A stretch of 64,000 bases of DNA from a virus. Location of the stretch: IMG/VR virus record IMGVR_UViG_3300047160_018755, positions 1-64,000 of that record; one strand, 5' to 3'. Shown piece by piece: positions 2,446 to 62,746 of this stretch. Numbering within the stretch: the stretch's first letter is position 1; each line of letters begins with the position of its first letter. A program made the translations under genes and the position numbers. Below the pieces are notes generated by a model, which was not told where the DNA came from, did no database searches, and saw only the letters and a program-made list of their open reading frames with translations.

Positions 2446-5400
2446 CTAGTCGCCCACCAGAGCTGGATGTAGACGGTGTCGCCGTTGGCATCGATGCACT
2501 CCAGCCACGTGCGCGCCTCGACCTGAACGGTTCCCGTCGGCTGCACCCACGAGCTGTAGAGCACGTTGCCGGAAACGCCGCCGACGGCCGGGGCGATGTT
2601 GCCGGAGACGAACTTGATGAGGTTGGCGGCATGGTCGACCTTGAATGTCGTCGACGTTCCGGCCTGGAAGATGATGTCGACCGTACGGCCACGCAGGGTG
2701 AGGCCACCGTTGGTGAGATCGATGAGGCAGTTCGGGGCCGCGGCGTCCGAGTCCTGGAGGCCAAGGCCGCCCGCGCCCGCCACGCCATTGACCTGCTGGG
2801 CGTAGATGAACGAGTAGATAAACGACGAGCTGCCGAGGTTGTAGAGGTTGTTGGCAGCCGGGATGATGTTGCCCGTGGTCGTGATCTGCGACGAGTCCAG
2901 GATGATGCTGGTGTTGGCGGAGACGTTGTTCTGGATGGTGAGGTTCGAGCCCTGCGACTGGATCGACGAGTCGACCGTGAGGAAGTTGATGTACCCGTGG
3001 GCCCAGGCCGTGCCCGCGGCTCCAAAGTCGTAGGTCGAGTCAGCCGCGGGAAGGATCTTCTTCGTGAAGAGCGTTCCCGACGAATCCAGTGCCATCTGCT
3101 CCGAGCCGCCGACGCCCGTGATGAAGTTGATTCCGTAGGCGCCGTTGACGCCGATGAAGAGGTTGGCGTTGGTCTTCGTGATACCCTGGTCGAAGCTTCC
3201 GTTGAGCAGGATCGCCGTGCCGTAGGAGTCCGGACCCGCGGCGTGGTTGCTGATCGTGAGCGCGGGACCCGTCGCCGGGGTGTACGACCCGTTGTTGTTG
3301 ATGATGAGGCGTTTGTTGGTGTTGTCCCAAACGAAGTTCGAGTTGTCCTGCGAGAGCGTCGAGCCGCCGCCCGAGAACACCACTGAGCCCGAGGTGAGCG
3401 AGACCGGGGCCATGTAGTCGGTGCCGGCCGTAGCCGTCGAGAGCACACCCGTCGTGGTCGTGACCTTGACCAGACCCGTGGTGAGCGCCGAGAGAGCCTG
3501 AGCATTGGGGAGTGCTGCGTCCGCCACCTGGACGATGTACTTCGAGGTGGACGGACCGAAGTCTCCAGCCGCATGCGTGGCAGCCGTGCCGAGGCCAAGG
3601 TTGGTCCTGGCGGTGCTGGCGGTGACGTCGGAGAGGTTGTTGGCAGTCTGGAGGAAGTCGCCCGCGGCGTGCGTAGCCGCCGTGCCGAGGCCCAGGAGCG
3701 TCGAGACGTCCGTGGCCGTCAGCTCCATCGGAGCGTGGGCGCCGCCCGAGACGTTGCCGAGGATGCGGTTGTTGGTGACGTTCTGGATCTTGGCGTACGT
3801 GACCGCGCTGGCCGTAATCGTGGTGGCGGTCGCGCCGGGTCCCGTGCCCGTGACGTCGCCCGTCAACGAAGTGATGCCACCGCTGGAGACGCCCGTGAGG
3901 TTGTGCCACGCGCCGCCGAAGTAGCCGTAGAGACGCCCGTCGGTCGTGTCGATGACGACGGCCTTGCGATCCGTCGCAGGCGCCGCCGAGTCGTAGGCCG
4001 GAACGCCCGTAGGCACGCCAGCCACGGACGGGATGTAGAGGTAGCCGTTGGTGGCGCTCGTGGCCAAGGCCGCGTCGCGGCCCAACATGACGTCGTTCGA
4101 CTGCGTGATGACGATGAAGGGTTCGTGGCCCGCACCACCACCCAGTGGCGCGCTGGCGATGGACGCGAAGTCGCCCGTGTTGCCCGAGGCGCTGACCTGG
4201 AGCACCATGCTGTTGGTGCCAGGCGTGTGGTTGTGGATCCACGCCAGCGTACCCATGCCGGTGTTGGTGTTGTAGTAGGCGTTCCAGACCGCCAGGGCGT
4301 CGCTGACCGTTCCGGCGTTGGTGGTGCGGATGCCGATGCTGGGGCTGCTGCCCAAGAGCGTGACGCGCTCGTTGGTGTCCTCGTAGAGGAAGTTGGCGCT
4401 CGACGTGGGGCGGCCATCGGCGTGCGTGCTGTCGCCGTAGACGACCTGCCACCTGGTGACACCGAGCGCGGCCGGGGTAGCGACGCTGGTGGCGACGGTC
4501 TGGTACAGGAGGCCGGTCGAGAGAGCGCCGAGGTTGGTGGTGTTGGGGAAGGACGAGTCCGCCTGAGTCGTGAGGGCGTGGATGCCGTAGGCGGCGCCGT
4601 CGTCGAAGCTGGCGTAGTGCCACGCACCACCGAGGTAGCCGTAGAGGCGGTTGTCGGTCGTGTCGATGACGATCGCCTTGCGAGCGCCCAGGGTGTGAGC
4701 CGGGACACCCGAGGGGACGCCGGCAGTCGTCGGGAGCCAGACGAAGCCCGTCGTGGAGGTGGTCAGCATCCCGTTCTGGTTGCCGAGGTGGACGTCCAGT
4801 TCGGAGTTGTTGGTGAACACTGTGATCGGCGAGCTGCCCGAGCCGGTGCCCTTGAGGTTGATCTGGTCGTCGGTCGCCGTCTGGGTGACGTTGACGATGT
4901 AGCTGGAGCCCGTGATGCCACCGCCCAAACGGCCCGAGATGAGCACCTGCTGGGCGCCGTTGACCTTGAATTCCTGCGCAGCCCCGCCCGTGGCGTTGGT
5001 GTTCTGGAGCGAGTTGACGACGACGTTGTTGCCGGCCGTGGCCGTGGCAACGGACAGCACGGTGCCGTTGTAGGTGAGGTTCGCCGAGTCAGTCAGGGTG
5101 TGGATGGTGGATCCGACGAACGGGATGCGACCCGCGTTCGAGCCCGGATCGTAGTCCATCACCTGGACAAAGTGAGGCGCCGCGGCTCCGATGTTGAAGT
5201 AGACGCGCAGATCCGAGATGTCAAAGACGCTGGCGACGGAGTTGGCAAGTCCGTAGGCTCCCTTCGCAGCGGCCGAGGGGGTGCCCGGGACGCCGAGGAC
5301 CGACGGCCAGAAGAAGAAGCCGTTGGTGTTGCCTGCCGTCTGTCCGTACGCGCCGCCACCGAAGTTCTTGGCTTGCGGCTGAATGGCAAACGCAGGGCCA

Positions 5401-8400
5401 AACGAAGCATCTTCCCACACGACCGCGCTGGTGGCCGGCTGGGTGCCCAAGGTCGTGTTCACGACATTGATAACCTGGACCGAGGATCCGCTGTTGAACA
5501 CGTATTCGGAGTAGTTCTCGGTGCCGGCCGCACTCCACTTCTGCTGAACGAGGTCGTTGGCGCCAGCGCTCGTGAGGTTGATCACCGGGTCGCCGAAGGT
5601 GCCGTCGCCCGTCAGGGTCAGTGTCTTGGTGCCGACGATGTAGGTGAAGTTCGCCGAGTCGGTCAGAGCGCCGGCCGTGGCCGAGCCGAATGGGACGCGC
5701 GTCGCGGTGGCGGCGTAGTCGTCGAACGTGGAGTAGTGCCATCCCGATCCGTCGTTGAAGTAGAGACGGTGGTCCGTCGTGTCGATCACCATCGGGGCGT
5801 TGGTGACGGCCGTGCGCGTGCCGGTCGAACTCCTCCAACGGGGTACGAGAGGCGTGCCCGAGGGCGCGCCCGACATCGTCGGGAGCCACGCGAATCCCGT
5901 CGTCGAGTTGGTCGGAACCGTGATCGTGCTGCCGACGACGGCGTCCGCCGCGGGCGACATCAGGAGACCGCTGACGGGAGAGAGGAACGTGTTGGGCAGT
6001 GCGACAACTTGCCAAGTCATCGCCAGGTGGCCACTGGAGATGCTCGCGTCGTATTGCGTGTCTACGAACGTTTGCAGCTCGACGCCCTGCTGGAAAGCCA
6101 CGCCCTGGTAGCCGAGGTATTGGACGGACCCGATCGTGTCATTGTCTTGGAGCGCGGCGGGAGAGGCCCAGGTACCGCGCGCCTTGAACGCACCCAACCG
6201 CGAGTAAGCTCCAGCCGATGAAGAGTAATACTGGGCCGCAACGCCTCGCTTGAAGGAGTCCGTACTTTCGTCGATGGCGTTGATTCGCCACGGCTGCGAA
6301 CCGTTAGTGACAGTCGCTGAGGTTCCGGGGGCGCCGACGAGGAGCCTGGAGTTGGTGGCGTCGTAGAGGAGGGTCGCAGAGTCGGTTAGGTTGCCAGCCG
6401 TGGTATCGGCAAACGGGATACGGCCCGCGTTCACCGGGTCGTAGTTGTAGAAGCCCGCGTACTGCCAAGCGCCCTTGGCGACACTGTAGCCGTAGAGCTT
6501 GGTGGTTCCGGTCGACGTGTTGTCGTAGAGCGCGATGGCGCGACGGTTGCCCATTGTCCCGCCAACAGCGTTGGTCGGTGTCACCGTGGGCGTCTGCGTT
6601 TGCGGAATGTACAAGTAGCCGCTGGTGTTGGTACCAGAGAGGTTGCTTGATCCGCCGACGCCAGCGTCGCCGGTCACCATGTCGGCGGTGATGGGGTTGG
6701 CGCCTACTCCCGAGATCGTATTGAAGGTCGAAACCGAGAACAGCGCCGACGTCGCGCTCGGATTGAGGTCGTTACGGAACCTGAGCCGCAGGCTCTGGGT
6801 GGTGCCATTCGTATAGACCTCGTTCAACTCCCACGACGTCGTGCCGCCAAAGGAGAACTGGAACGCCTGCGCAATGTTCGTGGAGGGTAGGTTCGTCGCG
6901 TTCATGACGAACGGCGTAAACGTGACCGCCTGCGAGGCGTCGTAGGTGACAGTCACCTTGCGAGTCGCCGCCGTGTCGTCATATGTCAGGCCCGCCGAAT
7001 CCGTCAAGGTCCCGGCAGTGGCCGCACCGAACGGAATGCGCGTCGGGCTCGCGTCGTAGTTGCTCAGGCGCTGGTACTGCCAGCCGTGAGACTGCGTGTA
7101 GACCCACAGACGGTCATTCGTGCCCGTCTCGATCTCGATGGGGACGCGGTTCTGGGAACGCGTACCGCCGAAGACTTGTGCGGGAGTTCCGCTGGGCTGA
7201 GAGCCGCTGAGCGCCGGGAGGTAGAGGTAGCCGGCCGTGCCACCGGCCGTGATGCTGGAGAGGCCAGTGTAGACGTTCGCGTCCGTGTCGACGCCGAGAG
7301 TAAATCGACTGGTGTTGAACGACGTGCCGATGCCACCGCTCGTGCAGAAGCCGGCCATCTGCGTGATGTTGCCAGTCGAGACCGATCCGTCTGACGGGAT
7401 GCCCGCGCCGAGCAGAACGGAGATGATATGGTTCGTGCCGTCGTAGGGCGCCCACTGGAACTGAACCAGGTTGTCGCCAGCCGCCGACGCCGTCTTCGAG
7501 GCGAAGGTCCCACGTGCCGTGCGGAAAGAGAACTGTCCGGGGATGCCGCCAGCGATTGGGCCGGTGTTGACGGTCGTCATTCGCAGGGTCGGCGCAAATC
7601 CCTCGCCGATCATGTGGAAGTACGTTCCGTTCGCGGCAGCGTTCGCGAGCGTGGCCGTCGACGACGTAAGAGCGCCCGCCATGATGAGCGTGCCGGACGC
7701 GGCGCCGGCATCCGAGTACATGAGCCGCGGCTGCGTGGCTTGCGTCAGCGTTCCATCCGAGGCGCCGAAGGGCAAGTTGCCCTGCGCCATGTTGAGCACG
7801 GTCGGCGTCGAGATCGAAGACGCTGTCGTCTGCTGGAGAACGCCGTTGCCCTTCGTGCCCAGGTTCGTGACGTTGGCCAGCGATGCCGGGTTCTGGGTGA
7901 CGAGAGAGTACGCACCCGCCGCCGCGCCGTCGTCGAACTGGAGGTAGTGCCAGCTGGCCGCACCGCGGTCGTACGTGTAGAAGCGGCGGTTGGTCTGGTC
8001 GATGACAATCGGCCAGCGCACATTGGCGCCGCCCGAGGCAGCGAGGCTCGCGCTTGGAGTCGGTGCCGCGCTCGGAGGACCTGCCACGGTCGAAAGGTAC
8101 GGGAAGCCGATGGTCTTCGACGCCGTCGTGATCAAATCACCGAGGCCGACGTCGAGATTGATGAGGTCGATGGCGAACGAGTTGGTGCCCGCCGCCTGGC
8201 CCGTGCCGTAGGGCCCGATGATGAACGAAGCGTTGGTGACGCCAGTCCAGGTGCTCGGGTTGAGCCACCTCATGCGGAACGCGAGACTCGTGCCTCCGGT
8301 GAGGAAGAGGGCGTCGAGGGATCCAAGCGGCACTCCGCGTGCCTGAAAATAGTAGCCCGAGTTGGTAGTTGCCGCGGTCTCGTTGTTCGTCGAGTTGACG

Positions 8401-9278
8401 ACGATGCCGTTGGTCGCGGCGCTCAGTCCGCCGGGCACTCCCACGAGGAGAGTCTGGTTGCCGCCTGAGCTGAGGTAGGAGAGGTTGGCGCTTTGCGCGA
8501 GGCCGCCGTTGGTGCCCGAGCCAAACGGGATCTGGCCCACGACCATGTTGAGAGCCGAGAACGCCGAGAGCGACGGCGAGCCGGACACGGCCTGCATGAG
8601 CACGCCCTGACCAGCCGAAGCGATGTTGATTGCGTTGGCGGGGGCGTTCGTCGACTTGCCGACGACGTAGAAGGCGGTCGGGTCAGCGTAGTCGGTGTTG
8701 GCCACCGCGATTGAAAGGATGCCCGAGGTGGTCGCGTTCTTGATGATGCCCGTGCCGAGGAGGCCCAGGAACTGCGCGTTGGGCAGGAGCGGATCGGTCG
8801 TGCCCTGGGCGATGAACTTGCCCGTCAGTGCGCCCGGCGGCGGAGTCGACGCGATGGTGATCGTGTTGCCGACCTGGGTCAGCGTGATGTTGCCGCCCGA
8901 GGCGAAGCTGATGTCCCCGAAGATCTCGGGGTTCGCGTCCGCGTGGACGCTGCGCACGCCTTTGTGCGTGTGGTCGTACGCCGCGGCAGTCGGTGCCGTG
9001 CCCGGCGCACCGGTCGCGTTGACGTCGCTGGGCGTGTGGGAGTGGTCGATGCCGACGACCGACCCATCGAGTCCCGGAGGACCAGCCAGGCCGCTCGGGC
9101 CGCGGTCGCCCTTATCGCCCTTGACGCCCCGATCGCCCTTCAGACCCTGAGGTCCGACGCGTCCATCGCGACCAGCGGGTCCAACGAGACCACGCTGACC
9201 TTGCGGACCAATGGGACCGACGAGGCCCTGAGGGCCCCGTTGACCGGCTGGGCCCTGGGGTCCTACGATAACGGCCAC
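2442..9278 (-). CDS. long tail fibre-like protein with N-terminal collagen repeats and 7 internal repeat modules
   Basis: 2278 aa; ~23 Gly-X-Y triplets at N-terminus; Gly/Thr/Ser/Ala-rich; 7 copies of G[YF]x[YWF]xP..sG.P..tP...iviDtt..Rly.y....Wh; RBS AAGGAGG. Confidence 0.8.
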
Positions 9279-29165: not shown

Positions 29166-31727
29166 TTACGGCGCGACTTGTGCCGAAATCGGGATGATCT
29201 GACTGACGCCTCGAACCTCGACAGCGATGTTCAAATTCGCCACCGGGCCGTTGACGCTGATCTTCGCCGCCTTGATTCCGGTGAAGGTCGGGTCGCCTGC
29301 AAACATGCTCTCGGCCGCGCGCACGACCTGCGCCGCGCTCAAGTCCGCAAGACTCATGCCAGCTTCGATCGGCAGGCCGTAGTCGGGGTGACGGTTGAGC
29401 GTGCCCTGGACGACCGAGAGCGCGAGCCGGACCTTCTGGATGACGTTCGTCAGACCCACCGACCAACGGGAGTCACCATCCGGGGTGATCACGAGGTCAT
29501 TGGCGGGAGTCAGGAGAAGGTCGATGCCGCCCACGGCGATGAAGGAGTCGTACTCCTTGATGCCCGGGATACTGCGGGTGGTGAAGTCCTCGTCCTTCGG
29601 CTCCAGGTCGGAGGGGATGTAGACGACCATCTGGCTGTTGACGGTGTTCGGGAGGAACGCCTCCAGCTTCGCGTTGGCCAGCGTGATGTACTGGTCCATG
29701 TCCGCGGGGCCGTCGACCGTCACGAGGACCTGGTTCGGGGCCAGGATGTCGATCTTGGTGATGGTGCGCGGGCTGCGGACGTTCGTGTCCGAGCCGATCC
29801 ACACCGGCTGCCCCACGAAGAGGCTCTTGGCGCTTCCAACGAAGACGGTGTTGTTGGCTCCGTTGACCAACAGGGGCAGAATGAAGCCCTCCTCGTCGAC
29901 GTACGGCGCCTGGAGACCGTTGAGAGTCGCGATCTCCAACCAGCGATCCGGGTCTTTGAGGTAGGTGAACGCGAGTTGCTCCAGCGTTCCGCCGTAGGGG
30001 AACGGCACCGCGAACTTCGAGATCGGCTGCTTGAAGGCGATTCCGGAACGAGAAGCGAGTCCCGCGACGGTCGCGATGGCGTTGAGCTTGGCGCTCTCGT
30101 TGGTGGTGACCGCGAAGCGACGCATTTCGAGGACGAGCTGGTTCAGGTAGAAGAGCGTGTTGAAGTCGTCATCCGTCGGCGTGTCGATGATGGTCTTCGC
30201 CGGGGCCTGGAGCCCGTAGATGGCGTTGTACGTCGGGTGGCCGGCGCCGATGGCCGCGGCGTACGTGTCTGCCGTCGCCTGGATCCCGTCCGCCATGCGC
30301 TGGTAGTCGAGGCGGGTGAGCGCGTGCACCTTGCGGCGCTCCGCTGCGATGGCGTTCTGCAACTTCGGCGACAGGTTGAGGTCGCCGACCGGAACGTTCG
30401 AGAAGAAGTCGTAGTTGTCGCTCGGGCGAACGAACGCGGTGTTGGCCGGGTGGGTGTCGCGGAGTCCCTGCTCCCAGGCCTTCACCTTCTCATCGATGGT
30501 GGTTCCGGCGCTGTCCGCCTGCTCTGAGCCGAGCGACTTGATCGCGTCGTAGATGGCCTGCGCGTTTTCGGAGACATGCTTGCCGGCGCGCTTGACGTTC
30601 TGCAACCAGTCGTCGCCGTCCTTGCGCACCGACGTGATCTGGAGGACCGCGGTCTTCGTGTCCTGCGCGATGGAGTCCGAGAGGTCAGCGATGGTGAGCG
30701 GCAGCGACAGCGTGTCCTTGCAGAGCAGCGTGAGCTGACGGATGGGCTCGAAGATGGTGCGATTGACGTCGCCGCCGATGGCCATCAGCGTCTTCTTCGC
30801 GCCCTGGAGCACGAGGCGAGCCGACATGAGGGTGTTGAGCGTCTTCGAGAGAGCGCCGGGGCTGACGTCGATCGGCTTGTACGCCTTGACCTTGTCGGCC
30901 AGACCCTTTTCGAGCTTGACGCGCTTGAAGGCCTTGAAGGTGAGGTTGTAGTGGTACTCCAACGGCGAGCCAGCGCCCTTGTCGACGTTGAAGTGGAGCG
31001 GCGAAACGAGGTACACCGCCTCGTCCTTCCAGGTCGCGAGCGCGAGGCGGACGTTGCGGTTGCTCTTGAGCTTCTTCATCTCGACGTACGACTCGAAGAA
31101 GATCTGGAGCAGACGGAACTGGTACCAGCCCGTCAACGAACCTGAGGCGGTGGGGTCGTCGAAGTCGGTCTGCGGGATGGTGTTGTCGATGAACTGCGTG
31201 TTGCCGAAGAGGCCCGTGGCGGCGAGCGTCTGCTTGGCGGCCGTGATCGTTTGGCGCGCGGCCGTAACGGTGCCAGCGAAAATGGCATCGCGCCACTGAA
31301 ACGCCTTCGGGGAGAGCGCAGCGCCGCGGTTCGAGAAAACCCCCGTGGTGCCTGAGATGGTGATGATGCGGGTCGGAGCGCCGTTGTGCTCTTCGACGTG
31401 CCCGCCGAGCGTCACCGAGTTGTTGATGGCGAACGGCATCGAGATACTGAAGCTCTCGGGCGGCATCGGGAGCGTGTACTGAAAGGTGGCCTGCCCACCA
31501 GCGTTGATGCTCGGGACGCGCGGCTGGTAGCGCGTGTACTTGCCCTCGCCCGACTCCTCGACAACGAGGAGCTGGTACGGGAAGAGCTGGTTCCAGTTTC
31601 CGCCCGAGATCGAGTCGTTGCGGAACCAGGTCTTGTCCGTGACCTGAACCGGCGCCGGCAGGTTCGAGGTCGCCCAGTCGCTCGCGGCAAGCGCGGAGGC
31701 GATGGGGCCGGGATCGTTCACTGGCAT
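29166..31727 (-). CDS. baseplate fusion protein: tube-initiator-like + LysM + gp25-like
   Basis: N-term PMPPESFSISMP...ITISGTTG; LysM-like GGTLEQLAFTYLKDPDRWLEIATLNGL; C-term gp25-like IQKVRLALSVVQGTLNRHPDYG. Confidence 0.65.
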   Translation of the reverse strand: MPVNDPGPIASALAASDWATSNLPAPVQVTDKTWFRNDSISGGNWNQLFPYQLLVVEESGEGKYTRYQPRVPSINAGGQATFQYTLPMPPESFSISMPFAINNSVTLGGHVEEHNGAPTRIITISGTTGVFSNRGAALSPKAFQWRDAIFAGTVTAARQTITAAKQTLAATGLFGNTQFIDNTIPQTDFDDPTASGSLTGWYQFRLLQIFFESYVEMKKLKSNRNVRLALATWKDEAVYLVSPLHFNVDKGAGSPLEYHYNLTFKAFKRVKLEKGLADKVKAYKPIDVSPGALSKTLNTLMSARLVLQGAKKTLMAIGGDVNRTIFEPIRQLTLLCKDTLSLPLTIADLSDSIAQDTKTAVLQITSVRKDGDDWLQNVKRAGKHVSENAQAIYDAIKSLGSEQADSAGTTIDEKVKAWEQGLRDTHPANTAFVRPSDNYDFFSNVPVGDLNLSPKLQNAIAAERRKVHALTRLDYQRMADGIQATADTYAAAIGAGHPTYNAIYGLQAPAKTIIDTPTDDDFNTLFYLNQLVLEMRRFAVTTNESAKLNAIATVAGLASRSGIAFKQPISKFAVPFPYGGTLEQLAFTYLKDPDRWLEIATLNGLQAPYVDEEGFILPLLVNGANNTVFVGSAKSLFVGQPVWIGSDTNVRSPRTITKIDILAPNQVLVTVDGPADMDQYITLANAKLEAFLPNTVNSQMVVYIPSDLEPKDEDFTTRSIPGIKEYDSFIAVGGIDLLLTPANDLVITPDGDSRWSVGLTNVIQKVRLALSVVQGTLNRHPDYGLPIEAGMSLADLSAAQVVRAAESMFAGDPTFTGIKAAKISVNGPVANLNIAVEVRGVSQIIPISAQVAP

Positions 31728-55539: not shown

Positions 55540-55671
55540 CCCTCTATTCTCCGCAAACCCGACAAAATTTTTTCCACACCCAGTGGGGCAAAATGCCCCA
55601 CTGCCCCAGCCTCGCTTCCGCTCGGCCCCGGGGCGTTTCTAGGCTTGACACCAATCTCAGGAGGTGAGAGG

Positions 55672-56001
55672 ATGTCCCACATGCACCTCGTCCCACCTTG
55701 CGAATACACCTGCCCGAGCTGCCACTCAGCCGCGACCATCCCGGCCGACCAGGCGAGGGTGTGGGTGCGCCGGGGAATGGTCTTCGACCCCGGGCCGCGC
55801 CCGACCTACGCCGCGGTGGCCTTCGGGGTCGCCTCGCTCTGGTTGCTCTTCGACTACCTGGCGCCAGGGTGGGTGTGGATCCTGGCTGCGCTCTTCTTCT
55901 TCGCCCGGCGGCGCCAAGAGCGCCAGCGTTGGGTCGAGGCCTTCGAGTCGGTGACGTGGACCTGGGTCTGCCAGTCCTGCCGGTGCACCTTCCGGCCGTA
56001 G
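55672..56001 (+). CDS. membrane protein with split Zn ribbon
   Basis: CPSC, two TM helices, CQSC; RBS AGGAGG; TTGACA at 55645. Confidence 0.65.
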   Translation: MSHMHLVPPCEYTCPSCHSAATIPADQARVWVRRGMVFDPGPRPTYAAVAFGVASLWLLFDYLAPGWVWILAALFFFARRRQERQRWVEAFESVTWTWVCQSCRCTFRP

Positions 56002-56209: not shown

Positions 56210-57338
56210 GGGGTGAAGTGTGGGGCCGGGGCGGTGCCGGGCGGACCCTTCATTTTGCGCGGAGCGCGCGAATATTTGGTCCGGATCCGCACCCGGTGGG
56301 CCCCTGGATGGGACCCTAGAATGTCCGGATGACCCCCGGGTGTAACCACGTACGGCCCCTGGGCTTCCCGCGGACCATGGCGCGCCTGATGTCCGGATCG
56401 ATGTCCGGTTGGGTCCGGCTGGCGCACGGGGTGGGGTCTGGAGTCACCGTGGCATTTTGCTACAATGCGTGCGTGATGTAGGTCGACCGTACGGATCCGC
56501 CCCCGGGCCGCGCGACGCGATGCGTCACGGGTCGGACCCCCGGGGTAGTACTAGGCTGGCATGGCCCTTGCATGGCTGGCGCTTGGCACGCGGCTTGCAT
56601 GTGCGCGAGATTGCAGCGCAATCGCAGCGGGTCACGCGTGTGTCGCGCGTAAGCGCGCGTAACGCATAGGGAAAACGCGGGAGGCCAGCGTATTTTTGAT
56701 ACGCTGGCCCGGATCGACGCGATGCAGTGGCTAGGGGCGGCATTGGCACGCCTTTTGCTTGGCCGGTCGCTTACGCGACGCGGTATCGTTTGGCCCGTTT
56801 TTTGCCCGTTTTGCCGCTACGCGGCGATCTGGGCTTTTGGCACGTTAGGTGCTACGGGGCGCTAGCTGCATTGCGTCGAATCTGCGATGGGTGCCTTTGC
56901 TGGGGTTGCCTGGGAACATGCCCGCGAGACTGCGCCGCCTTGCGTGTGAGGGGTTTTCGGGTCGGGTCGGGAGGTCCGGGCGAACCCACCTTGACGCGGC
57001 GCTTATGCGTTCCTAGGCCATGGCATGAAGATTGCTTGTTGGGGCAAAATGCCACGTTGTCTGTGAGGCAACAGGTGTTGTCTCGTTTCGGTACAGGTGT
57101 CGGATTTCTGTACGTTGCGGATCTGTACATGTTGCGTGTGAGGCAACAGGCGATCTATGTGATATCATTGGGGATCGGCGAATGTCACAAAACTCTGCCG
57201 ATCTGCGTCGAGCTCTAAGTGTGCGAAACCATTGGCTGGCACGGAAAGTGGATATAGGCTGGGGCACACACGAGACCGCCCGAAAGGCCGCGAAGGCCGG
57301 CCGAAACGGGCACAAACCGAAACGTAAGGAGGCCCACA

Positions 57339-57533
57339 ATGTTCACCTCAGTCGTTGCCCTGGTCGTCACCCTGGTTCTCGGCGCGCAGAGCGCCCCCGC
57401 CAAGTCGCCGCACGTGGTGTGCGAGACCTACGCGCCCAACGCGGAGCGCATCACCATCACGGTGTGCAACGGCCACGTGACCGACGCGTGCGACGACAGC
57501 GACCACTGCACGAGCGACGACGCGGCGCGCTAG
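57339..57533 (+). CDS. small secreted Cys-containing protein
   Basis: RBS GTAAGGAGG; signal peptide; 4 Cys. Confidence 0.65.
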   Translation: MFTSVVALVVTLVLGAQSAPAKSPHVVCETYAPNAERITITVCNGHVTDACDDSDHCTSDDAAR

Positions 57534-57614
57534 GGTTGCCCGACGCTTCCGACCTGGTAGCAGGTCGGCGGCGACGGGGAATCAATCGCCCAACGCAACG
57601 TAAGGAGGCCCACA

Positions 57615-57839
57615 GTGTTCGAGACCCTGTACCGCAAAGCGTCAGACGCCGACATGGCGCTGCGCCGTCACGTGGTGCGCTGCGTCGAGTGCCAGTCTGG
57701 CCCGTGCAGCGACGCGTCGGACCTTTCGACGCAGGCCCACGTCGCGCAGCGTCAACTCGACCACGCGCGTCGTAGGGCGCACGAGGCCCGGGAAATCGCC
57801 CGCGAGGAGGCTTCCGAGCGCTCGCACCCGGTCGGCTGA
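57615..57839 (+). CDS. small Zn-binding protein
   Basis: RBS GTAAGGAGG; HVVRCVEC...C. Confidence 0.65.
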   Translation: MFETLYRKASDADMALRRHVVRCVECQSGPCSDASDLSTQAHVAQRQLDHARRRAHEAREIAREEASERSHPVG

Positions 57840-57880
57840 TTCACCGCATCAAAACCCAAACGAAACGTAAGGAGGCCCAC

Positions 57881-57997
57881 ATGTATTCCAACAGCATCAA
57901 CGACCTGTACAACGCACTGCACGAAATCCTGGTCGAGGACCGCGTCGCCCGTGGCTGGCCGCTGTGGTGCGCCATCGTCGACGTCGACACGCTCTAA
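57881..57997 (+). CDS. 38-aa peptide
   Basis: RBS GTAAGGAGG-CCCAC-ATG; MYSNSINDLYNALHEILVEDRVARGWPLWCAIVDVDTL. Confidence 0.55.
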   Translation: MYSNSINDLYNALHEILVEDRVARGWPLWCAIVDVDTL

Positions 57998-58397
57998 CGT
58001 AAGGGCGCATACATAGCACGGCTCATGCGATAGTGTCGCATGCATGAGCCGTGCCGAGGCTGATCTGCACGCGCCGAGCAGAGGGGAGCTCGTGGTGTGT
58101 TGTGTGTTGACGCAGGCCGTCAGCGTCAAGCTTCAGAGGCTCTGGGTTGGCACGATCGATGCATGCCCGAACATTTTGCGAGGTCTGACGCAGTGCCCAT
58201 GACGCACTGCGAACTATGCGGAATCATTCAATTGACGCGCTAACTGAGAATCGCGTCTAAGGCCCCTGGGAGCGCATAAGCAACGCGTCATCGGTTTTTG
58301 GCCATGTCGGGCCGTCCAGACCCCGAAACGTTGAACCTGAGCGATTGACGCGATGCGATTTTGCTGGGATGCGTCGAGGTGCTTGGCACGATCGATG

Positions 58398-58811
58398 CTA
58401 GGCGCCGAAAACTAGGCCGGCTGCGTCAAGTCGATGAATGGCATGAAACCTGCATACGAAACCCAGGTTCGCATCGCGGATTGGCACGGTGCGTTGACCG
58501 CCGAATCGCACTGCGTCACGATCGCGGGCGTTTTCTTGATGCGTCCCGGCGTAGAGGTGCGCGGGATTGACGCAGCCTTTCATGTCGCAGGTGTGACACA
58601 CGATTTTTCCGTGTGGTATCTCACCAAAAGCGATCGTGTAGGCCACGCGATGACGCAGGTACGCCTTCCCGTTAATTAGGAAGCTACCGTACTGATTTTC
58701 AGTCTCGCGACGATTGAACCAGCAGAGAAACGCACCGCGTCGAACGGTCGAGGCCTCGAATCGTTCAATGTCTGATCGCGTTAATTCTGGGATGGGCGAT
58801 GCATGTCGCAT
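58398..58811 (-). CDS. HNH endonuclease (HNH_3-like)
   Basis: YGSF...HRVAY...GEIP.G..VCHTCD..GCVNPAHL..GT..EN..D. Confidence 0.8.
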   Translation of the reverse strand: MRHASPIPELTRSDIERFEASTVRRGAFLCWFNRRETENQYGSFLINGKAYLRHRVAYTIAFGEIPHGKIVCHTCDMKGCVNPAHLYAGTHQENARDRDAVRFGGQRTVPIRDANLGFVCRFHAIHRLDAAGLVFGA

Positions 58812-59139
58812 GCCAATACTTCTATCGAATCTCCCAACGGTTTCGCATTTCTGGCATAAGTGGTGTGACGCAGAGCAATATCCCAGGAAATTGGGGGTGC
58901 GTAATTTCCGCGCACCCCGCGAAACGGGATATACAGGCTAAACCCGCGAAACTACACAAAACCGAATATTTTGGGGTGCGTCGATCGCTTCGCACCACGA
59001 TCCGCAACGCGTCAGATCGGCGCGAGACTTGCGGGGATCGGGTCGCGGCGAGGTTGGCACGTGGAATGCTAAACCCCTCGGTGGGCAAGCCCTGACGCGG
59101 GAGTCGAGGGCGCCCCGAAAACTGACGGCGAGGTGACCG

Positions 59140-60666
59140 ATGGAAAGTGAACGGAAGTGGTCGACGCAGCAGGGCGCGATTTTCGCGTGGCTGGCCGCAT
59201 GCCGCGTTGTGGCGACGGCGCTGCGCCACCTGGTGGTCCGTGCACGGGCAGGCACGGGCAAGACGACCACCATCCTGGAAGGCGTCAAGCGGGTGCCGAA
59301 GACGCTGCGCGTCATCGTCTGCGCGTTCAACACGCGTATCCGGAAGGAGCTTGTGACGCGGCTCGACAAGCTGCAAGCGCAGGGCGAGTGCCGCAACGTC
59401 GAGGCCCGCACGCTGCACAGCATCGGCCTCCTGTTCCTGGCCGGCGCGTGGGGCCGGCTCGACTCGGACCACAGCGCCGAGGTTGACCGCGACCGTGCAC
59501 GCGACGCGGCCGGCCACAACGCGCCCGACGAGGTCGTGACGCTGGTCGTCAAGCTGGCCTCGCTGGTCAAAAACGTGCTGCCGTTCGCTGGCCCGGAGCA
59601 GCTGGCCGACGTCGTCGCCCTGGCGCGTCAATTCGACCTGGAACCGTCCGACGAGGACGCCGAGGCCGGATGGACCGTGGAACGGCTCGCGCGGTGCGCT
59701 GGGAAGGCCGCCGACGCTGCGACCGAGCGCGACCCCAAGGGCCGTATCTCCTTCGACGACATGGTTTTCGTCCCCCTGGTCAACGGCTACGCTCGCCCGC
59801 GCTGGGACGTCGTAATCGTCGACGAGGCCCAGGACATGAACGCGGCGCAGCTTGCCCTGGCGCAGCGCGTGGTGACGCCCGGCGGCTCTATCGTGGTGGT
59901 CGGCGACGACAAGCAGGCGATTTACGGGTTTCGCGGCGCCGACGCGGGCAGTCTCGACCGGTTGAAGGCCGAGCTTTCGGCCGAGGAGCTTGGACTCACC
60001 GTGACGTACCGGTGCGGCAAGAAAATCGTCGAGGTGGCGCGGGCCCTGGTCCCGGACTTCACGGCGTACGAGGGCAACGCCGAGGGCATCGTCGACAGCA
60101 TCGCCACGCCGGCCATTTTCGAGCAGGCGCAGGTCGGGGACTTCGTCCTGTCGCGTAAGAACGCGCCGCTGTTGGCGCTGGCGCTGGGATTCATCAAGCG
60201 CGGCGTGCGGGCTCGCATCGAGGGGCGGGACATCGGCCGCATGCTGCGCAGCATCGTCGCCGGTCTCAAGGCGCGCACGGTCCCGGAGTACCTGACCAAG
60301 GCGCAGAAGTGGGGCGAGAAGGCGTCTAAGCGCTGCGCTCGCATCGAGTCCCCGGAGGTCCGGGAGGCCAAGCTGGCCGAGGTGGCCGACCAGGTCGAGG
60401 TGTTGGTCGCGCTGGCCGAGGGCGCGGCGAACGTCTCCGACATCCTGCTGCGCTGCGATACGCTCTTCGGCGACGACACGGGCGAGCCCCGCAAGCACGT
60501 CGTGCTCTCTTCGGTGCACAAGGCCAAGGGGCTTGAGGCGGACCGGGTCTTTATCCTCGCGGACACCGTGTCGACGCGGTCCGTCGAAGAGTCGAATATC
60601 TACTACGTCGCGGTGACGCGGGCCATCAAGCACCTCACGTGGGTGGTCGGCGAGGTCAAGAAGTAA
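59140..60666 (+). CDS. UvrD/Rep-type superfamily 1 helicase
   Basis: ARAGTGKTT, AFN, VDEAQD, VGDDKQAIYGFRGA, TYRC, VHKAKGLE, YVAVTRA; RBS GAGGTG. Confidence 0.9.
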   Translation: MESERKWSTQQGAIFAWLAACRVVATALRHLVVRARAGTGKTTTILEGVKRVPKTLRVIVCAFNTRIRKELVTRLDKLQAQGECRNVEARTLHSIGLLFLAGAWGRLDSDHSAEVDRDRARDAAGHNAPDEVVTLVVKLASLVKNVLPFAGPEQLADVVALARQFDLEPSDEDAEAGWTVERLARCAGKAADAATERDPKGRISFDDMVFVPLVNGYARPRWDVVIVDEAQDMNAAQLALAQRVVTPGGSIVVVGDDKQAIYGFRGADAGSLDRLKAELSAEELGLTVTYRCGKKIVEVARALVPDFTAYEGNAEGIVDSIATPAIFEQAQVGDFVLSRKNAPLLALALGFIKRGVRARIEGRDIGRMLRSIVAGLKARTVPEYLTKAQKWGEKASKRCARIESPEVREAKLAEVADQVEVLVALAEGAANVSDILLRCDTLFGDDTGEPRKHVVLSSVHKAKGLEADRVFILADTVSTRSVEESNIYYVAVTRAIKHLTWVVGEVKK

Positions 60667-62604: not shown

Positions 62605-62746
62605 GGATCTACGCGGGCGTGTAACGCCCCACGCAGTCAAACCCGTGTTGACCGCGTAGGGCGCTACGCACCAAAGCTTGTAAGTCCTTGATTTCTGGTG
62701 CGGCAGTCGTTGGCACGATTCGTGGATATAGTCTGGGCAGGAGGGA

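Follow-up and report, generated by a model that had tools for sequence, protein, structure and literature searches.

Why should a phage hold ten boxes resembling sigma-54 promoters within 2.5 kb of its genome? The question is raised by the IMG/VR record IMGVR_UViG_3300047160_018755 (182,279 bp in total, G+C 63.4%, terminal overlap of 97 bp), of which the first 64 kb were analysed as one stretch, here called the window. The boxes read TGGCAYG-N5-TGC, and the sigma-54 consensus of Myxococcus xanthus is TGGCACG-N4-TTGC(T/A) (PMC7910581). With about even confidence, we read them as sites of the host sigma-54 RNA polymerase that would serve as enhancer-dependent early promoters, and the phage probably starts or gates its infection by way of a type of host transcription that phage research has hardly touched.

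Number, geometry and setting of the boxes

A total of eleven exact matches to TGGCAYG-N5-TGC were found in the window, whereas dinucleotide shuffles averaged 0.29 matches and held two at most; none of the 100 shuffles attained eleven sites. This agrees with an earlier note, made from the letters of this DNA, which had put the density of sites far above chance. The whole 182-kb genome contains twelve such sites and their density is far from equal throughout, as ten of them fall within 56557-59069, which represents 1.4% of the genome. All ten exact sites listed in the earlier note were recovered at their coordinates, nine on the plus strand and one (58801-58815) on the minus strand. The two exact sites outside this array are found at 29347(-) and 179260(+). 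The members of the array, together with a weak near-match lying among them, are:

56557..56571, plus strand: box 1, TGGCATG-N4-TTGC-AT
56584..56598, plus strand: box 2, TGGCACG-N4-TTGC-AT, 27 nt after box 1
56744..56758, plus strand: box 3, TGGCACG-N4-TTGC-TT
56791..56805, plus strand: weak near-match TGGCCCG-N4-TTGC in a tract rich in T, 47 nt away from either neighbour (boxes 3 and 4)
56838..56852, plus strand: box 4, TGGCACG-N4-GTGC-TA
57021..57035, plus strand: box 5, TGGCATG-N4-TTGC-TT, with the palindrome GGGGCAAAATGCC at 57041-57054 immediately after it
58148..58162, plus strand: box 6, 16-mer TTGGCACGATCGATGC identical to that of box 7, with the dyad TGACGC-N9-GCGTCA at 58108-58128 before it
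58384..58398, plus strand: box 7, same 16-mer TTGGCACGATCGATGC as in box 6
58439..58453, plus strand: box 8, antisense within the 3' tail of the HNH open reading frame (ORF)
58801..58815, minus strand: the sole minus-strand match, which includes the start codon ATG of the HNH gene
59055..59069, plus strand: box 10, 85 nt ahead of the start codon ATG of a gene for a UvrD-type helicase

The spacing within the boxes is strict. Between 56.4 and 59.2 kb, TGC follows TGGCAYG ten times at N5 and not once at N4 or N6, and this interval holds 12 of the 48 TGGCAYG heptamers of the genome where 0.74 would be expected from its length. Positions that played no part in selecting the sites also follow the extended sigma-54 consensus (Y before TGG, W after GC): all 11 sites have W-W after TGC (about 1e-9 by chance), and TGG is preceded by T in seven of them and by G in none. 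The base before TGC is A or T in nine of 11 sites. The intragenic site at 29347(-), in which GG follows TGC and W-W is hence lacking, is probably a chance match. Only the 15-nt core is common to the array boxes whereas the flanks are not, and no tandem-repeat family extends across the flanks. The canonical -12 TGC is retained in the array boxes and their -9..-3 segment is G+C-rich.

Nine of the ten array boxes lie on the plus strand, the same strand as both downstream units (binomial p = 0.02). The minus-strand box may be incidental rather than a member of the array, since it contains the ATG of the HNH gene. The array falls into a left block (boxes 56557, 56584, 56744, 56838 and 57021 plus the weak 56791, with a variant box at 57237 at its end) and a right block (the plus-strand boxes 58148, 58384, 58439 and 59055), and the spacings between boxes are 27, 160, 94, 183, 236, 55 and 616 nt. 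The earlier note had also named two near-matches, for which the outcome was mixed: 56791 is real but lies within the T-rich tract, and 58041-58056(-) turned out to be one arm of a 13-bp hairpin.

A cluster of this kind might be produced by chance or as a compositional artefact of G+C-rich DNA, as the consensus is itself G+C-rich. A scan of the genome allowing one mismatch returned 43 boxes compared to 46 for the reversed control, which renders one-mismatch scans uninformative in this genome. The exact sites, on the other hand, show the shuffle result, the concentration and the strict spacing described above, and the background is low, with eight boxes in 1.47 Mb of loci around unrelated phage helicases. 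The site counts already refute this explanation and we give it a negligible probability.

Gene calls in this G+C-rich genome were based on the G+C content of third codon positions (GC3), ribosome-binding sites and a few Pfam matches. Genuine phage genes have a GC3 of 0.84-0.95, whereas all ORFs in 56.2-57.3 and 58.0-59.1 kb, the HNH gene set apart, have a GC3 of 0.50-0.72; both box blocks are therefore non-coding, with the exception of the HNH gene. That most sites have no gene directly downstream, as claimed earlier, is borne out by this measure, only 59055 being gene-proximal. Genes to the left of 56191 are mostly leftward, which makes the region a divergence point, read here as the hub of early control, and the G+C content of the right-hand block (56%) is the lowest seen.

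Gene-proximal boxes in this phage and in Mx1-like phages

The phage is a distant relative of the Myxococcus phage Mx1 (OR576727; PMC10720576), with structural and replication genes that are 25-58% identical and syntenic, while no Mx1 homologue was found for anything in 40-73 kb. Mx1 contains a single exact box, 146924(-), located in a divergent gap beside its homologue of the present genome's gene at 178010-179227 and ahead of the primase-helicase operon, and this box is syntenic with boxes 179222 and 179260 of the present genome. Fifteen Mx1-like IMG/VR records (labelled G001, G005, G008, G010, G012 etc.) were found via the capsid protein; together they hold 27 exact boxes against four for the reversed-pattern control, distributed very unevenly, with eight in G010. 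Seven of these records were retrieved, five of them as complete genomes, the other two being the closest fragments.

In G010, G008 and G005 (G+C 41-47%), the boxes are found 33-71 nt upstream of early ORFs that run rightward from a divergence point, and they take the form TGGCACG-N4-YTGC followed by AATAGATA- or ATATAG-like sequence. The GG-N10-GC spacing, which the earlier note had treated as decisive, is kept in the relatives. With up to one mismatch allowed, G010 has 20 sites in 48-71 kb, 16 of them on the plus strand, compared to three genome-wide for the reversed control. A core resembling the binding site of integration host factor (IHF), WATCAA-N4-TTR with up to one mismatch, occurs no more than 45 nt upstream of 6/20, 3/6 and 3/5 sites in G010, G008 and G005 respectively, the background being 3-10%. 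Several sigma-54-type boxes in G012 are antisense inside leftward ORFs. A partner motif, GTCTCA-N3-TGAGAC, was observed in two of the relatives, with 47 (G010) and 57 (G012) copies of GTCTCA/TGAGAC where about three would be expected. These copies span 48-60 kb in G010 and 137-148 kb in G012, many of them are palindromic and many gene starts read ATGAGAC.

Boxes close to genes are also present in the phage studied here, outside or at the end of the stacks. The variant boxes at 57237 and 62711 described in the earlier note were confirmed, and two further ones were found at 65336 and 69758:

57237..57257, plus strand: TGGCACG-N4-GTGG-ATATAG (variant box), 102 nt upstream of the first tiny early gene
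62711..62731, plus strand: TGGCACG-N4-GTGG-ATATAG (variant box), 36 nt upstream of an ATG
65336: variant box ending ATATCT, 41 nt before a start codon
69758: variant box TAGG-ATAGG, 29 nt before a start codon
179222, plus strand: near-match box near the exact box 179260
179260, plus strand: exact box, 84 nt before an ATG

The variant boxes combine the box geometry with an A/T-rich tail as in the boxes of the relatives, with G replacing C at -12. Since the variants lie near start codons and the canonical boxes are stacked, the gene-proximal members are the -12 variants and the canonical ones are gene-free. Some 17-30 nt upstream of the 62711 box, the other strand carries an IHF-core match. The variant form TGGCACG-N4-GTGGATAT was also sought among viral contigs, with 45 matches; the contexts examined look coding (several read ATG-GCA-CG...), and no related promoter emerged among them. 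The ending GTGGATAT presumably resembles a DnaA box. At the other end of the genome, a 173-nt divergent gap (179171-179343) contains CTATATAG, the boxes 179222 and 179260, and TATACAAT, and both promoter types in this gap appear to feed one unit. The gene that follows encodes a small secreted or membrane protein.

We infer binding, firing and the choice of activator from these sequence features, and propose the following sequence of events. The two co-oriented stacks would feed the first two rightward early units, the first consisting of three small genes from 57339 and the second starting with the UvrD helicase gene at 59140. Sigma-54 holoenzyme would load on the incoming phage DNA as closed complexes, and a host enhancer-binding ATPase would then open them, so that early rightward transcription would follow host signalling. 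This ATPase may bind the GACGC/TGACGCA dyads interspersed among the boxes, or an unrecognised phage factor may act as the opener instead. The promoters that fire would be the boxes near genes (59055, 179260 and the -12 variants 57237, 62711, 65336 and 69758), with box 10 at 59055 being the best candidate for a working gene promoter, whereas the canonical boxes upstream would provide extra entry points that inevitably also retain holoenzyme.

The phage itself appears to contribute neither of the two proteins required. A six-frame search of the whole genome at E <= 1 returned no PF00158 (sigma-54 activator AAA+), PF04552 (sigma-54 DNA-binding), PF04542 (sigma-70 region 2), PF02954 (Fis-type HTH_8) or PF07728 (AAA_5), no ORF in the genome carries a GAFTGA-like loop, and the sole AAA match is a DnaB-like helicase. 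The homologue of the Mx1 'putative sigma factor' was considered and set aside, as it has no sigma domain in Pfam or PHROGs. If the boxes are sigma-54 promoters, the sigma factor and activator must therefore be supplied by the host, unless some new type of opener is at work. M. xanthus cannot do without sigma-54, and enhancer-binding proteins (EBPs) abound in the Myxococcota (PMC12316311). The idea of sigma-54-driven early transcription put forward in the earlier note thus stands in part: the co-orientation of nine boxes out of ten, the placement of the relatives' boxes directly before early genes and the syntenic box of Mx1 are in its favour, whereas the AAA+ EBP that was to be sought in the phage genome was not found.

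Neighbouring elements, stacks and competing explanations

The genes and elements that surround the boxes are:

55672-56001, plus strand: 109-aa gene, unannotated-looking, GC3 about 0.9, with CxxC...CxxC motifs and a hydrophobic segment
56191-56015, minus strand: 58-aa gene, the first leftward gene, convergent with the 109-aa gene
56450..56466, plus strand: TGGCATTTTGC, with short spacing and no sigma-54 box, overlapping the extended -10-like TGCTACAAT
56514..56526: dyad GACGC-GAT-GCGTC
57339..57997, plus strand: three tiny early genes of 64, 74 and 38 aa, GC3 0.84-0.95, with a strong ribosome-binding leader repeated
58016..58054: perfect 13-bp hairpin that closes the small-gene unit and contains the near-match 58041-58056(-)
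58108..59098, both strands: cluster of the partner motif TGACGC(A/G)
58398..58811, minus strand: HNH homing-endonuclease gene (HNH_3, E 4e-12), GC3 0.59, inside the right-hand stack
59140..60666, plus strand: UvrD/PcrA-type helicase gene (PF00580, E 7e-27), which opens the second rightward unit

The three tiny genes have no Pfam or PHROG match. An identical 18-nt leader, AACGTAAGGAGGCCCACA, precedes each of them (57321-57338, 57597-57614 and 57864-57881), with a degenerate fourth copy at 57996, and together with this shared leader they look cassette-built. The HNH gene looks foreign as its GC3 of 0.59 falls below the 0.84-0.95 of the phage genes; transcription running rightward from boxes 6-8 would cross it antisense.

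TGACGC occurs 14 times in 58.0-59.14 kb compared to 0.98 expected, partly in the form of dyads. A 10-mer, GACGCGATGC, occurs three times (in the dyad at 56514 and also at 56716 and 58347), its copies ending 18-33 nt before boxes 1, 3 and 7. The palindrome GGGGCAAAATGCC(CC) is found at 55587-55597 and 57043-57054, with a half copy at 56450-56460. It is operator-like in its placement, with one copy upstream of a small gene, the half copy overlapping TGCTACAAT and one right after box 5, where a bound repressor would block a box-5 promoter. A direct repeat, TGTGAGGCAACAGG, is exact at 57062-57075 and 57137-57150, 75 nt apart; its copies lie 90-175 nt upstream of the variant box 57237, which is the distance expected for an enhancer. 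On the minus strand, ATCCGGAC / CCGGACAT occurs three to four times in 56279-56408, upstream of the leftward gene 56191-56015, and represents a candidate operator set. As for promoters of other types, the TGCTACAAT region at 56450-56466, which precedes the stack, may be a rightward promoter of the sigma-70 type. A sigma-70 consensus scan of 55-64 kb gave no site, and TTGACGC as a -35 element was rejected because there is no -10 at the proper distance.

These repeats bear on the possibility that the boxes are sites of another phage or host DNA-binding protein, e.g. origin iterons, whose likeness to sigma-54 sites would be coincidental. The right-hand block, with its lower G+C content, its position beside a helicase gene and its many copies of the second repeat TGACGCA, would suit such a binder, as would the DnaA-box-like ending GTGGATAT of the variant boxes, and the partner motifs vary between phages as would be expected of phage-specific binders. 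Against this, both half-sites at exact spacing as well as the unselected flanking positions match sigma-54, and the same bipartite motif is found again in phages (33-67% G+C) that have no sequence in common, so that a universally conserved host factor fits better than a phage protein. The irregular spacing of the boxes, the limitation of their common sequence to the 15-nt core and the failure to see any A/T-rich unwinding element near the array are also unlike iterons. We regard another binder as improbable.

The boxes could also be promoters of small non-coding RNAs rather than of downstream operons. Three hairpins, among them a 12-bp stem at 56683-56711, are predicted for the segment that follows box 2 (56609-56735; z = -2.7 vs shuffles). 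The remaining eight box-downstream segments fold no better than shuffles, however, and neither an Rfam match at E <= 1 nor a tRNA was found in 54-64 kb, nor T-tract terminators after the hairpins of the hub, making this explanation very unlikely.

The main rival of the promoter reading concerns the stacks themselves. According to it, the stacked boxes are not for firing and would instead hold sigma-54 polymerase as stable closed complexes, so that the host sigma-54 programme (development, envelope, stress) is drained as phage DNA copies multiply; in a gate variant, the stacks would stop transcription that comes from the upstream TGCTACAAT promoter until they are cleared by an activator. No gene directly follows eight of the ten boxes, and the stacks are gene-free. 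The canonical -12 TGC is retained in the array boxes together with a G+C-rich -9..-3 segment, in contrast to GTGG plus ATATAG in the gene-proximal boxes, and this fits a sink, as tight binding at the -12 fork junction locks the sigma-54 closed complex (PMC5095919). Occupancy of many non-transcribing sites by sigma-54 is described for E. coli (PMC4591121).

Viruses beyond this clade provide further evidence on the same question. Paired perfect boxes (TGGCACG-N4-TTGC) 5-35 nt apart were found in at least 120 IMG/VR contigs, where the chance expectation was estimated at less than one. Boxes 1 and 2 form a 27-nt pair that recurs exactly in 56 metagenome contigs (G+C 33-67%), many of which contain runs stepping 27 nt with a maximum of 12 boxes in about 0.55 kb; such packing would suit a sink. 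Since a 27-nt step corresponds to about 2.5 helical turns, neighbouring boxes would face opposite sides of the helix. Runs of four to 12 boxes were observed in unrelated metagenome contigs, for example at 8467-8548, 2533-2614, 3049-3615, 4944-5492 and 905-1458 of five contigs.

A search of 596 Gb of cellular genomes did not return the fixed 27-nt pair, a result that also favours a sink. A looser paired pattern was present in 88 cellular records; among the 80 examined, 53 have two boxes only and the maximum is six. Many of these records are short contigs of metagenome-assembled genomes, and at least one is also an IMG/VR record. On a 222-kb contig of an uncultured Haliangium, a unit of about 45 nt is triplicated with two overlapping sigma-54 boxes per unit, and an uncultured Polyangiaceae has a duplicated sigma-54 box about 40 nt before a gene; short tandem sigma-54 boxes therefore do exist on Myxococcota chromosomes.

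Other properties of the stacks speak against a sink. No strand bias is required of a decoy, whereas nine of the ten boxes share one orientation here, and the viral loci with tandem boxes show a mean of 3.3 same-strand compared to 0.8 opposite-strand boxes within 1.5 kb on either side. With a crude ORF caller, 27 of 120 such loci had boxes co-oriented with genes, 12 convergent and 63 'inside' ORFs, a weakly informative result. The relatives place the same boxes directly before genes, the spacing of the array is loose (27 to 573 nt), and eleven sites per genome represent a modest load unless the copy number is high. On balance we consider a sink or gate possible but unlikely.

The promoter reading has its own difficulties. 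The next gene is 0.3-0.9 kb away for eight of the ten boxes, with none within 100 nt. Upstream of the array boxes, the search for an IHF core found none, no enhancer was recognisable, and the GACGC elements, mostly 18-50 nt upstream of boxes, are nearer than classical enhancers. Besides downstream boxes, the sole repeats that would be read through are the GGGGCAAAATGCC palindrome after box 5 and TGTGAGGCAACAGG, and the poor folding of the eight downstream segments counts here as well. The comparison with relatives is also unfavourable in part. The array occurs in none of the accessible relatives and the early genes around it are without homologues, so that purifying selection on these boxes is not demonstrable; the closest complete relative, G001, has no exact box. 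A blastn search of 50,697 phage records with 56-60 kb gave no match, nor did tblastn with the flanking proteins, and blastn and tblastn of 40-73 kb against eight Mx1-like records, the two closest fragments included, returned nothing. A 183-aa neighbour protein has no IMG/VR relative and the UvrD helicase matches only unrelated phages, at no more than 48% identity. Finally, the host is presumed to be myxobacterial from the kinship with Mx1, which is the sole basis for this assignment.

Any stack of strong sites retains holoenzyme, and the promoter and sink readings are therefore not exclusive. A joint arrangement can be envisaged in which the canonical, hard-to-melt, gene-free stacks would capture holoenzyme and starve the host sigma-54 programme, while the gene-proximal boxes with GTGG and ATATAG would fire with little or no host activator, or via a new phage opener acting on the TGACGCA dyads. 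The arrays would then be a virus-specific holding pen and launch pad; we put this forward as a speculative and rather unlikely arrangement.

Known systems and biological meaning

Bacterial RpoN promoters such as glnAp2 and pspA share with the boxes the spacing between -24 GG and -12 GC, the T before TGG, the A/T after GC, the orientation towards downstream genes (here in nine of the ten boxes) and the presence of dyad-symmetric elements close by. They differ in that here ten boxes lie in 2.5 kb of a virus without a sigma-54 or activator gene, most of them geneless, in an array of putative function that has no recognisable enhancer or IHF site. The Mx1-like phages (G010, G008, G005 and Mx1) agree in core, spacing and rightward early genes at the divergence point, and the A/T-rich ATATAG-type element after their -12 is found in the variant boxes here. 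In them, however, each gene or operon has about one box, placed 33-71 nt ahead of its start and often accompanied by WATCAA-N4-TTR, whereas here the canonical boxes pile up geneless and the gene-proximal ones have G for C at -12. Arrays in unrelated uncultured phages likewise consist of near-perfect same-strand runs in gene-poor control regions, with the 27-nt pair and an adjacent phage-specific motif, although theirs are often tighter (12 boxes in about 0.55 kb) and the present one is looser, split into two blocks, interrupted by genes and without homology to them.

Sigma-54 sites that are non-transcribing or intragenic, described in E. coli and in Salmonella (PMC4591121, PMC3844500), offer stable occupancy without an obvious transcript as a sink would need, and differ in being single and scattered rather than clustered and co-oriented. 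No article dealing with sigma-54 promoters or arrays of such boxes in phages turned up in the literature search, part of which was specific to sigma-54 promoters of phages. The closest reports concern T7 Ocr, which blocks sigma recruitment (PMC7064336) and is a protein whereas the element here is DNA, the link between Gifsy-1 and RtcR, and a 2026 preprint on Htm, an EBP-like protein of a T4-like phage (bioRxiv 10.64898/2026.10.06.757011), of which no counterpart was found in this genome. By analogy, Ocr and Htm indicate that phages can interfere with sigma-54 polymerase, or may use it.

By the textbook account, early transcription of phages relies on the housekeeping sigma factor of the host or on a phage polymerase. 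Myxobacteria possess dozens of signalling ATPases tied to starvation, development and envelope stress. If the boxes are promoters, lytic infection by this phage would depend on such host ATPases or would need a new mechanism of opening; if they are a sink, the stacks would be a DNA-based switch-off of a host regulon. Mx1 is cultivable and holds one syntenic box, thus providing an experimental entry point. Sigma-54 promoters as such are already known, and it is the stacks of boxes in phages that are likely to surprise those who work on phage transcription. Tandem boxes occur in many uncultured viruses and the fixed pair has no counterpart in the cellular genomes searched, which gives the question a scope wider than this phage.

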